Positions 12,001-15,000 of a stretch of 25,564 nucleotides of DNA are shown one piece after another. Location: the IMG/VR virus record IMGVR_UViG_2698536657_000010, positions 1 through 25,564 of that record. One strand, written 5' to 3'. Position 1 is the stretch's first letter; every line of letters begins with the position of its first letter. Origin of the DNA: a virus. Lineage: Duplodnaviria; Heunggongvirae; Uroviricota; Caudoviricetes. A program made the position numbers.

Positions 12001-15000
12001 ATCCGTATATATTCGTGATAATCCAGCCGTTCAAAATTCTGATTAAATTCTGCGATACAGACAGAACGTGTCTGATTATCCAGGCGGCGATACACCACTT
12101 TATCAGCAGAACAAAAACAAATTTTCACCGGATAACCAGCGGCATCAACATACCGCTTACCACGTTGGATCAGAGAGAACATGTATTTATCCCCCAGCGG
12201 CAAATTGAGTACACAACCAGCACAATCGCCAACGCAATACCAACATTTGAGAACACTTCAGTCCAGGTCATCGTAAAATACTCTCTGTGTTTATCAGCCC
12301 ATTCTGTTTCAGATACTCCATCGCCGTATCAGGTAGCTTGCTTGATTTATTGACGCTTTTTAATGAACTGGCTAATCGCTTAACCAACATAGTTAATTCA
12401 CTCACCTGATCGCCTAATGCTGGATTATTGTCGCTTTTTCCCGGCAATATGTGCTCTCGACTGGATTTCCAGAATATCCACGCCAAATCCACATTTGGAT
12501 CCCGGTAATTCATCCCTTCGTTAGCACGAAGCAATAATGTTTCATGGTTTTTATCATCTGCATGGAACCTGATAAGTGTTTCAAACTGTTCGCGACCGTC
12601 ATCAGGGATTACCTGAGAGTTACCCGTTAGCGCATTCTGCTCCAGTGATGCTTTTACAAACCAGGATGCCTGGACTATAACCCCATGGATCCAGCGCAAA
12701 TCAGCATCGAGATCCTTCTTCTTCATCTTTTCGCCACTTAAAGCCTTGCTTATGTGGCTGCGCACCAGGTCTTCATGTAACTCCTTCGCCTCCTCAATGG
12801 TGAAACCGCCAGGCAGACTAGCCTGAGTTATCGGAGAGTTGCCAGCCTTGCGCATGGCAATCTCCATGATTTCAACCATATCCCCTGGTGGAATTTTACA
12901 AAGTTGCCCAATACATTTCTGCTGCCTGGCATATTCGAGAATGTGCTCCAGTTTGGTTCGATTAATCATTATTTATCTCCCTGAAGCATGGCTGCGCGGC
13001 AGGCTTCATCAACCATAACTTCTACGTTTTCGAGAAGTACGTAACTGTACTGCTGCCCGCTAACCCATTCTTTTCTGCGAGGTAATGCGCGTGGGTCCGC
13101 TACAATAGTTCGCAAACGTTCCAGAACAGCTGGCACTATCGGCGCTGGCGGGGCGGTGTAAAGTGGAACAACTCGCCCTCCCCATTGCTTAACACTACTC
13201 TCAGCGAACACTAAATGCTCAGTCCGATAATACCCAGGGGCATCAATATCTTTTCTTTCGCTATCCCACATGTAAACCACCGATTCTGCTTCCAGCGATG
13301 CCAGTGCGATAAGCGCCAGCTCACGAATTTCACCGCCGTCTATATCGTCAATGTCATCGCGGCCAGAAATGTTAGCCAGCCATTGCAGTCGCTCTTTGGT
13401 AATAGTGGTCATCTCACTCTCCTTCTATGCGAATACCAGCAGCAGTCAGTGCTGCATTGACCTCATCAGCGTAGTAGTACGTTAATCCACTTGATGATTT
13501 AGCCAGCTTGAATGGTTCTGGTAACTTCACTGTGCGGGACTCCTGCTCGTCGATACGCTGTTTTGCTTCCTCCAGTTCATCCAGCAAATCAGCGATAATA
13601 TCCACTTCACGATGACGGATTTCTCGCTTAAACGCAGACAAAGCTGCATCACAATCCTGCTCAGCGTTTGGACTGTCTGGTTTCTCCTGATACCACGCCA
13701 GCATCGACCGATAGTTTTGTGCTGCCTCACGCAATGCCTGATAGTCAATCTTGCTCACTGGTTGCCTCCTTTGTGGATCTGCGCTGCGATGCACGAAAAA
13801 AAAGACTCCCGCGTATGACTGTTAAGAGCTGGTGCGAACGCCGCGTTAAGAACGGCAGCATCACAGCCGTCATTGATATAGAGCGCAATTTTTTCTCCAG
13901 GCGCGCTTTGGCTTCCTGCAACTGCATACCCCGGCACGCACGCGGGATATACTCAGCAATTTGAGCGATAGATTTTTCGTTCTGTTTAAACATGCTTCAC
14001 CTCGACAGGCTTGATGGTGTCGATCAGTAGTCGGCGGCGCGTATTTTCTGCAAAGTGGCGGCGTCCGGTTTCTTTGTGGTAAAACTCGTTTTTGTCGACG
14101 ACCCACATCCGCTCCGTCTGGTGCAGTTTTTTTACCTGCGGACCGTCTTTGGTGATCACGATGCCGGTATGGGTTTTTACGATTGTCATGCCACCACCTC
14201 TTCGAATTTCAATTCCAATTGTTCACCCCAGATTTCACATGACTCTGAACACGAGCCGGTATCGAATCGCCTGGCCTGCACCATCGCCTGATAGTTAATC
14301 TTCATCATCCTCACCCCACTCATCACAATAAGCTTCAACCGGAGTTTTTCCTGCTTCATAGTCATCACGCCATGCTTCAGCATCGGCGGCACTTCCACCG
14401 CGTAACTCTGCATAGTCCATTAACAGTTCATGCCATTCTTCAAAACTGGCGTTATATTTAGTTGAACCAAAATCAGCCATTTTGTTCTTCCTCTTCGTCT
14501 TTTATTTCGTGATATGAGTAATTGCAGTAGTTAAAGAAAATTTCTTTTGCTTCGTCATGAATTTCATCAGGTGTTGCGTCATCGTCCACTTCGAATACAT
14601 CCTCGAAACCTCCACCGGCTATTCCCGTTTCAATAATTATTTTGAACTTTCGCATTTCACTACCACCCTGCCGGGCGGTCTCCTGATGTTCTGAGGGTGC
14701 AGGAATCCCTCCTGTTAAGGATTAAATTTTATTTACAGTGCTGATTTTAATTATTCAGTTCTGGATTATGCTTTCTCTTTCACCTGCCGTAGTTCCTGGT
14801 AATTAATTTCGCTCACTGGTTGCCTCCTGGAAAATAACCGCATGTCCCAGTTTCTCCGCCAGTGCCAGTTCTGCCTTAGCGCCTGCCGATCGCTGCCAGC
14901 CTTTCAGCATATAAACCGCATCCACACAACGAATCATTGCCATGCAAATATCCATGTAATGTGGCTGAGTCAGCCCGTCCGGAAGTACTGCGGGATTTAA

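Follow-up and report, generated by a model that had tools for sequence, protein, structure and literature searches.

The stretch of DNA analysed here (the window) comprises positions 1 to 25,564 of the IMG/VR virus record IMGVR_UViG_2698536657_000010, and represents an E. coli prophage that carries Shiga toxin 2 genes and has integrated next to cpxP-cpxRA. Our subject is the interval 13753..14828, at whose ends an 18-bp sequence (GCTCACTGGTTGCCTCCT) occurs as a direct repeat. A preliminary description of this DNA saw in the interval a cassette of small genes bracketed by the repeats. We consider it likely that the interval is a hypervariable accessory stretch of the early operon, and that the 18-mer is the recombination-prone core of an approximately 80-bp junction at the starts of ead/Ea22-like genes.

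Results

Genes and features of the interval

The late region of the prophage is lambdoid (Q, 7093-7797; stx2A, 5203-6291; stx2B, 4927-5190; a nanS-p-like esterase, holin and lysozyme), and the early region is P2-like. The latter holds an integrase (21485-22519), a C-type helix-turn-helix repressor (21143-21451) and Cox (20734-21018), and continues with Ash, a 3'-5' exonuclease, a RecE-N-terminal-like protein, DUF1627, a second Ash and replication protein A (9260-11182). This order places the interval in the early lytic operon, upstream of the replication gene. All genes in the interval lie on the minus strand; transcription runs through DUF977, DUF4406, a 16-codon open reading frame (ORF), a spacer, DUF7167, genes for proteins of 61, 39/40, 67 and 79 amino acids (aa), the 114-aa Ea22-like gene (Ea22-114), and genes for proteins of 147 and 233 aa, the last two with no function recognised in Pfam or PHROG. 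The features are as follows.

15515-15105, minus strand: DUF977, PHROG family 'Ren-like exclusion protein'
14803..15108, minus strand: DUF4406, nucleoside 2-deoxyribosyltransferase-like (Pfam PF14359, E=3.4e-37; phrog_355)
14811..14828, minus strand: linker copy 1 (Shine-Dalgarno AGGAGG, CAACCA, GTG, AGC), with a similarity island to ~14783
14766..14816, minus strand: 16-codon Ea22-like remnant, VSEINYQELRQVKEKA and stop, identified by comparison with relatives
14656..14765, minus strand: 110-nt non-coding spacer, opening with ~15 nt (TCCAGAACTGAATAA) from the 3' end of a lost 118-aa gene
14473..14655, minus strand: DUF7167 protein, 60 aa, isoelectric point (pI) 4.1 (Pfam PF23768, E=1.7e-13; phrog_1997)
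14295..14480, minus strand: acidic protein, 61 aa, pI 4.05 (phrog_519)
14186..14308, minus strand: chimeric 39/40-aa ORF (C-terminal match to phrog_424)
13986..14189, minus strand: basic protein, 67 aa, pI 10.1 (phrog_1226, E=1.2e-41)
13755..13993, minus strand: 79-aa gene with a -1 frameshift in an A-run (phrog_1344; alignment to locus L001)
13753..13770, minus strand: linker copy 2, identical 18-mer, with an island to ~13716
13414..13758, minus strand: intact ead/Ea22-like gene, 114 aa (Pfam PF13935)
13414..13437, minus strand: second junction, GIRIEGE and stop (GGTATTCGCATAGAAGGAGAGTGA), with AAGGAG as ribosome site of the gene that follows (ATG 13412)

The ORFs are those that had been described, namely 114 aa from GTG 13758, 39/40 aa from ATG 14305/14308 and 16 codons from GTG 14816, and the enclosed genes (two acidic, one basic, one frameshifted) likewise bear out the earlier account. 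The 114-aa protein matches PF13935 with 33.6 bits (cutoff 27; E=6.9e-8) over residues 2-73, and its relatives are named 'ead/Ea22-like family protein' in RefSeq; a Pfam search with the 40-aa ORF gave no match. Neighbouring genes are tightly packed. The last 9 codons of DUF4406 cross linker copy 1, the ATG of the 67-aa gene overlaps the stop of the gene before it (ATGA), and the intact form of the 79-aa gene ends ...AAQIHKGGNQ with its TGA overlapping the GTG of Ea22-114.

An 18-bp linker serves as the end of one gene and the start of the next

The 18-mer has two exact copies, at 13753-13770 and 14811-14828, and still only two when up to 3 mismatches are tolerated; 0.02 copies are expected, and none of 100 shuffles reached two or more. 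The motif ATTRAYTAYCAG (I-D/N-Y-Q) occurs three times, on the minus strand only, at 13738, 14288 and 14796 (again 0/100 shuffles), and a chance repeat is therefore ruled out at both levels. On the coding strand the 18-mer reads AGGAGG-CAACCA-GTG-AGC, that is a Shine-Dalgarno sequence, a spacer, a GTG start and a serine codon, which upholds the preliminary description of two perfect repeats each supplying a ribosome site and a start. It also closes the gene before it, in a different frame at each copy: DUF4406 read through the linker ends ...QEATSERN, and the intact 79-aa gene ends ...KGGNQ.

Similarity extends beyond the 18-mer to 46 nt (13725-13770 versus 14783-14828, 78% identical), and a third, weaker copy lies at 14275-14320 (61% identical to 13725-13770). 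The three paralogous gene starts proposed earlier are all present; the third, however, reads MMKINYQAMV, and has neither the serine nor the L-R of the pattern ascribed to it, because the sequence past YQA derives from a PAPS-reductase gene.

The linker is a family-wide junction between reassorted flanks

An exact-match scan of IMG/VR with the 18-mer returned at least 119 viral contigs. Pairwise comparison of 110 unique contexts gave a mean identity of 0.45-0.75 in a stretch reaching from about -20 to +58 around the 18-mer; beyond that stretch it drops to about 0.30, the random level. The junction so delimited consists of the last ~8 codons of the upstream gene, AGGAGG, a GTG that overlaps the upstream TGA, and the first ~14 codons of the downstream gene, V-S-(K/E)-I-(D/N)-Y-Q-A-L-R-E-A-A-E. 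Judged from these alignments, the 18-mer appears to be the invariant core of an ~80-bp junction before most ead/Ea22-like genes of Escherichia temperate phages.

Among the matches listed, the downstream ORFs open almost without exception with VS(K/E)I(D/N)YQALRE and continue in many unrelated ways. Within the N-terminal peptide I4, Y6, Q7 and L9 are invariant and R10 nearly so; after about residue 15 the Ea22-like proteins diverge, and a few downstream genes are unrelated, a full PAPS reductase among them. The 121 sites among these matches cluster into 25 upstream and 23 downstream types in 66 combinations, one downstream type being paired with 13 different upstream types. The sequence is thus conserved amid unrelated flanks, and its left and right flanks are reassorted among genomes, as is expected of a boundary junction. 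To this extent the 18-mer is not the end of a particular cassette, as had been proposed, but a junction found across the family and in other contexts in many phage contigs.

Codons 3-6 fall into two main haplotypes, AAGATTGACTAT (KID) and GAAATTAATTAC (EIN). The window carries one of each, and its two copies are therefore not recent duplicates of one another. The same 114-aa allele is found with starts VSKIDYQ (KID), VSGINYQ (GIN) and MTTEINYQ (TTEIN), which places crossovers inside the island. When the window was compared with the loci then collected, the ends of homology blocks clustered at 14760-14799, 14280-14299 and 13720-13779, fourteen blocks terminating at 13720-13739. These pile-ups coincide with the three Ea22-like starts, and block ends accumulate at other gene boundaries as well; a genome-wide search repeated the same end points (query 473/478, 1008/1014 and 1574/1585). 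In species-representative genomes the 18-mer gave 36 matches, about chance level (~17 expected; 596e9 x 2 / 4^18), only 2 of them in Escherichia and the rest in unrelated taxa. The element thus appears to be taxonomically narrow.

The 147-aa protein downstream of Ea22-114 (12969-13412, minus strand) begins MTTITKERL, and other loci encode unrelated-looking proteins beginning M(S/T)(A/T)ITKER, in L015 directly after the 18-mer. This suggests that the region may hold further gene families with conserved starts and variable bodies.

Related prophages differ exactly at the repeats

An artificial 400-nt joint was made from the 3' end of DUF4406, one linker copy and Ea22-114, and used to find the empty site. 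It was matched as one piece in STEC1585 (NZ_CP129252.1; 400/400 nt, 97% identity). Of 5,426 complete E. coli genomes, 572 matched the joint over at least 80% of its length. Presence and absence of the interval therefore fall exactly at the repeat, as the earlier proposal had predicted for related prophages.

Besides the empty site, four further configurations were found among relatives. E. coli Z1323MEC0001 has an identical cassette, remnant and frameshift included, and JNEC-KY171 differs from it in having an intact 200-aa Ea22-like gene instead of the remnant. SCU-171 has a shorter version that lacks the 67-aa and 79-aa genes, with the same Ea22 allele, here beginning MTTEINYQ, and in a further relative the content after DUF7167 differs from that of the window. 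Among the prophages compared, three other gene sets lie between DUF1627 and gene A on the same P2-like backbone. The repeats are thus sites of variation and do not lie inside one continuous conserved gene. The empty site and the alternative fillings support the proposed exchange at gene-start linkers; the single module does not survive, since the interval is itself a mosaic with two recombination or deletion scars.

Two scars and a frameshift lie within the interval

The first scar is the 16-codon remnant, at whose position relatives carry an intact Ea22-like gene of 200 or 153 aa. Here 37 nt of the window (14795-14759) replace 574 nt of JNEC-KY171 (L001, 3506-4079). In SW070917 (L129), an Ea22-like gene of 153 aa and then a gene of 118 aa separate DUF4406 from DUF7167, after which come a 58-aa gene and a further Ea22-like gene. 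The window retains, immediately past its remnant, the last ~15 nt of that 118-aa gene, which marks the remnant as a deletion scar. A search for a parent of the 28 nt in mid-remnant gave matches only in other remnant contexts, and the last ~15 of these nucleotides were traced, via L129, to the deleted 118-aa gene. The same junction is present in 58 complete E. coli genomes, and the remnant is thus a stable allele.

The second scar is the 39/40-aa ORF, in which a 7-codon Ea22-like start (MMKINYQA) is in frame with the last ~32 codons of a PAPS reductase. The joint lies at ~14287-14299, at a microhomology, TATCA(A/G)GCGATGGTG. The intact PAPS reductase of phage Lyz12581Vzw ends ...NLYQAMVLAKRFDTGSCSESCEIWGDQLELKFEEVVA, and Stx2a-type phages have, downstream of the PAPS reductase, the 67-aa and 79-aa genes and then an Ea22-like gene. 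In SMN013SH2 (L003) and SW070917 (L129), a gene of the 61-aa type precedes a full Ea22-like gene beginning MSEINYQ. RefSeq relatives of the 39/40-aa ORF are annotated as partial PAPS reductase. Two of the three Ea22-like copies in the window thus appear to be non-functional scars.

The 79-aa gene carries A6 at 13889-13894, where intact alleles carry A7; in the window and loci together A7 was seen 20 times and A6 three times (the window, NZ_CP148318.1 (L002) and IMG/VR contig L096), with the RefSeq label 'frameshifted'. From the sequence, A6 may be either an inherited allele or a recurrent homopolymer sequencing error.

A second junction closes the Ea22-like genes

At their 3' ends the Ea22-like genes close with another conserved junction (GGCATTCGCATCAAAGGAGAGTGA, encoding GIRIKGE and stop), found 72 times in 68 of 130 sequences (129 fetched loci plus the window) and followed by more than 15 different genes. 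The 114-aa protein of the window ends ...IRIEGE, keeping the Gly-Glu with Glu in place of Lys/Arg. The C-terminal tripeptide of Ea22 proteins ('+GE', or K/RGE) is described in PMC7093339 as having no known significance; the presence at this point of AAGGAG, the next gene's ribosome site, would explain it.

Discussion

A probable recombination-prone junction in the early operon

The anatomy of the junction, the polymorphism at the linker and the reassortment of its flanks can be read directly from the alignments, and from them we infer a pathway of recombination. Being shared by many phages, often in several copies each, the junction may act as a portable patch of homology at which homologous recombination, or its relaxed form, would bring together left and right partners that are unrelated, through the action of RecA or of phage single-strand-annealing proteins. 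Where one genome holds two copies, recombination of one with the other would delete or duplicate the DNA between them. The window would then hold three generations of such events: an intact Ea22-like gene, a 16-codon remnant, and a start fused to the tail of a PAPS reductase. The deletion that made the remnant would also have taken the neighbouring 118-aa gene, and the small genes in between would be passengers, co-transcribed and translationally coupled in the early operon. The conservation of the island is most simply ascribed to its content (a strong ribosome site, a coupled stop and start, and an N-terminal peptide), and the linker was probably kept by selection on translation and on this peptide rather than for recombination itself.

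Several points weigh against this interpretation. Phage Rad52-like recombinases act on short, diverged homologies, with minimal efficient pairing segments of 23-27 bp for Red-beta and 31-34 bp for RecA (PMC3945230, PMC2327257), and the perfect identity of the two window copies, at 18 bp (36/46 over the island), falls below both values. Direct recombination between these two copies would therefore be inefficient, and most of the exchanges would have involved better-matched copies in different phages. The junctions in SCU-171 (L124) and in the PAPS-reductase fusion lie near the 18-mer and not inside it, so that part of the rearrangement is probably microhomology-mediated or illegitimate. Selection of contigs by an exact 18-mer forces the core to be invariant and biases the sample toward 18-mer contexts; even in loci selected in this way, 55 of 163 Ea22-like starts have other upstream sequences. 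No single-strand-annealing recombinase (RecT, Red-beta) was recognised in the window, and the support for recombination is comparative, no event having been seen directly.

Other readings of the interval

The enclosed genes might be an anti-defence or host-takeover set, kept and exchanged for that function. They encode small acidic and basic proteins, belong to a temperate phage's early operon, where transcription reaches them ahead of replication gene A, and lie in a region that is hypervariable among phages sharing a backbone, beside a gene (DUF977) of the Ren-like exclusion family. Their homologies, on the other hand, do not point to such a role. PHROG families 1997, 519, 1226 and 1344 are all of 'unknown function', searches of NCBIfam and of PDB sequences were empty, and PADLOC, which covers defence rather than anti-defence families, gave no match to the cargo. 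The AF2 model of DUF7167, made from a single sequence, is a beta-hairpin plus helix (pLDDT 79), and that of the 61-aa protein has three helices (pLDDT 68); Foldseek searches of PDB with the two models returned nothing with E below 0.8. Homologues of the 61-aa protein, where named, are all 'hypothetical' and come from Escherichia, Shigella, Salmonella and Enterobacter, and nothing relevant came up in the literature when full texts were searched for DUF7167 and for the cargo's RefSeq accessions. A frameshift breaks one of the four genes, and scars account for two ORFs; this points to weak selection on at least part of the set. We regard an anti-defence role as unlikely, though it keeps an appreciable chance.

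A stronger version of the recombination-prone junction would make the Ea22-like genes true exchange cassettes, with a hypervariable interior between the ~80-bp 5' junction and the 24-bp 3' junction (GIRIKGE and stop), both kept at least partly for swapping. This we think unlikely. If it were true, temperate phages would swap effector modules of the early operon at a high rate, possibly lysogeny modulators or anti-defence proteins, in which C-terminal domains are interchangeable. Such an arrangement would parallel that of polymorphic toxin loci with orphan modules, and the window's remnant and fused start would correspond to 'orphan' fragments.

It is distinctly unlikely that the repeat is the relic of a tandem duplication of one Ea22-like gene at this site, followed by decay and insertion of foreign DNA. 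Tandem Ea22-like genes with the exact 18-mer are indeed common (spacings of 584, 761, 589 and 1054 bp in L013, L021, L031 and L070), and many upstream contexts end with an Ea22-like C-terminus, ...AQLRKGGNQ. The window copies, however, belong past the 18-mer to the different and widespread EIN and KID haplotypes, with 10 mismatches in 28 nt, and would thus group with copies in other phages, not with each other. Moreover, the left part of the interval (DUF4406, remnant, DUF7167) and the right part (67-aa, 79-aa, Ea22-114) occur separately elsewhere.

The preliminary description had also placed the interval among the sites where morons tend to sit, and its two flanking genes are indeed neighbours in related prophages. 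A moron transcribed independently from the prophage is nevertheless very improbable. A simple consensus scan of the coding strand over 13300-15300, which weak promoters could escape, found no sigma-70-like promoter or intrinsic terminator, ATGA and GTGA overlaps tie the genes to their neighbours in the long early operon, and G+C is 0.44-0.51 inside versus 0.46-0.50 in the flanks, with no compositional break. A discrete mobile cassette, moved by site-specific recombination or transposition and with the repeats as target-site duplication or attachment sites, would account for perfect direct repeats around ~1 kb that is missing from an otherwise collinear empty site, but is scarcely credible and was rejected, given that protein-family searches found no integrase, transposase or homing nuclease family in or beside the interval, that no inverted repeats were found at its ends, that its interior is mosaic and varies piecewise, that the 18-mer stands as a single copy before genes in more than 100 unrelated contexts, and that the repeats are coding and ribosome-site sequence inside a longer similarity of 46-80 bp.

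Comparison with known systems

Ea22 proteins are described as highly diverse in sequence and variable in their C-terminal parts, with K/RGE as the last residues (PMC7093339, PMC8614690). The 114-aa protein shares with the ead/Ea22 family (PF13935; lambda ea22 and P22 ead, of the exo-xis region) the N-terminal motif and a coiled-coil-type middle; its end keeps the Gly-Glu of the tripeptide but not the basic residue. In contrast to lambda ea22 and P22 ead, its gene is not found between exo and xis; it is situated after DUF4406 and before replication gene A, within a P2-like early operon, or else, in relatives, downstream of O/P-type replication genes. A pro-lysogenic role is known only for the Ea22 proteins of lambda and Phi24B.

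The recombination-prone junction most resembles the boundary sequences of lambdoid mosaicism, in whose model conserved junctions permit exchange between unrelated modules (Susskind-Botstein 1978 and Clark 2001, as these are cited in PMC3029335). The likeness consists in a short conserved sequence at a gene junction, unrelated modules in many combinations, and homology blocks that end there. The linker is not intergenic, however, but is made up of a gene tail, a ribosome site and the first ~14 codons of a paralogous family, so that its conservation can be explained by translation and protein function alone, and some of the junctions lie beside the core and not in it.

Two other systems bear comparison. 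Morons, reportedly described by Juhala et al. in 2000 and by Hendrix et al., are said to be extra genes between genes that are adjacent in relatives. The interval likewise holds extra genes between such neighbours, but it lacks a promoter, a terminator and a composition shift of its own, and is coupled translationally to the operon. The start-associated sequences of Cluster K mycobacteriophages, reportedly described by Pope et al. in 2011, are said to be 13 bp long, to precede unrelated genes and to occur many times per genome. They share with the linker a conserved ribosome-site sequence repeated immediately 5' of several gene starts; unlike them, the linker continues into the coding part of a single gene family and recurs from phage to phage.

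Other features of the prophage

The combination of a lambdoid late with a P2-like early region spans 1-22519 of the window, and no complete E. coli genome in the collection covers 9300-20300 to 80% or more. A published account of non-lambdoid Stx phages (PMC8044961) does not use the terms GPA, rolling circle or replication endonuclease. An Rfam scan of the whole window found no family in 13.3-15.3 kb, and the 110-nt spacer plus remnant is not structured (RNA fold, z = -0.8). Elsewhere on the minus strand there are two matches to C4 antisense RNA (75 and 69 bits) and one to IsrK (57 bits), at 19915-20002, 11548-11635 and 11671-11745. Each lies within or beside an Ash-family ORF (19666-20250; 11179-11811), which suggests that one prophage may hold two antisense-controlled modules of the P1/P7 type. 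A 704-aa protein (16439-18553, minus strand) matches Exonuc_VIII (RecE) only in its N-terminal residues 30-195; the rest is acidic and of low complexity, and its relatives are annotated as partial RecE pseudogenes. A match to the small RNA STnc100 (148 bits; 4632-4839, minus strand) lies just downstream of stxB, and a match to naRNA4 (CssrE; 25475-25552, plus strand) at the host end of the window.

Significance

The interval is a clear but ordinary example of phage mosaicism, of a known kind, and reveals neither a new kind of element nor a new function. Boundary sequences are often invoked, yet are not identifiable at most mosaic boundaries (PMC3029335); the junction described here provides a clean and quantifiable case, with reassortment of modules, in Shiga toxin prophages. 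Two conserved C-terminal motifs, '+GE' of Ea22 proteins and 'KGGNQ', receive a simple explanation, in that the ribosome-binding site and start of the next gene would encode them. For annotators, short ORFs that open with the Ea22 motif are to be read as probable recombination scars, and the region is an unreliable one for phage typing.

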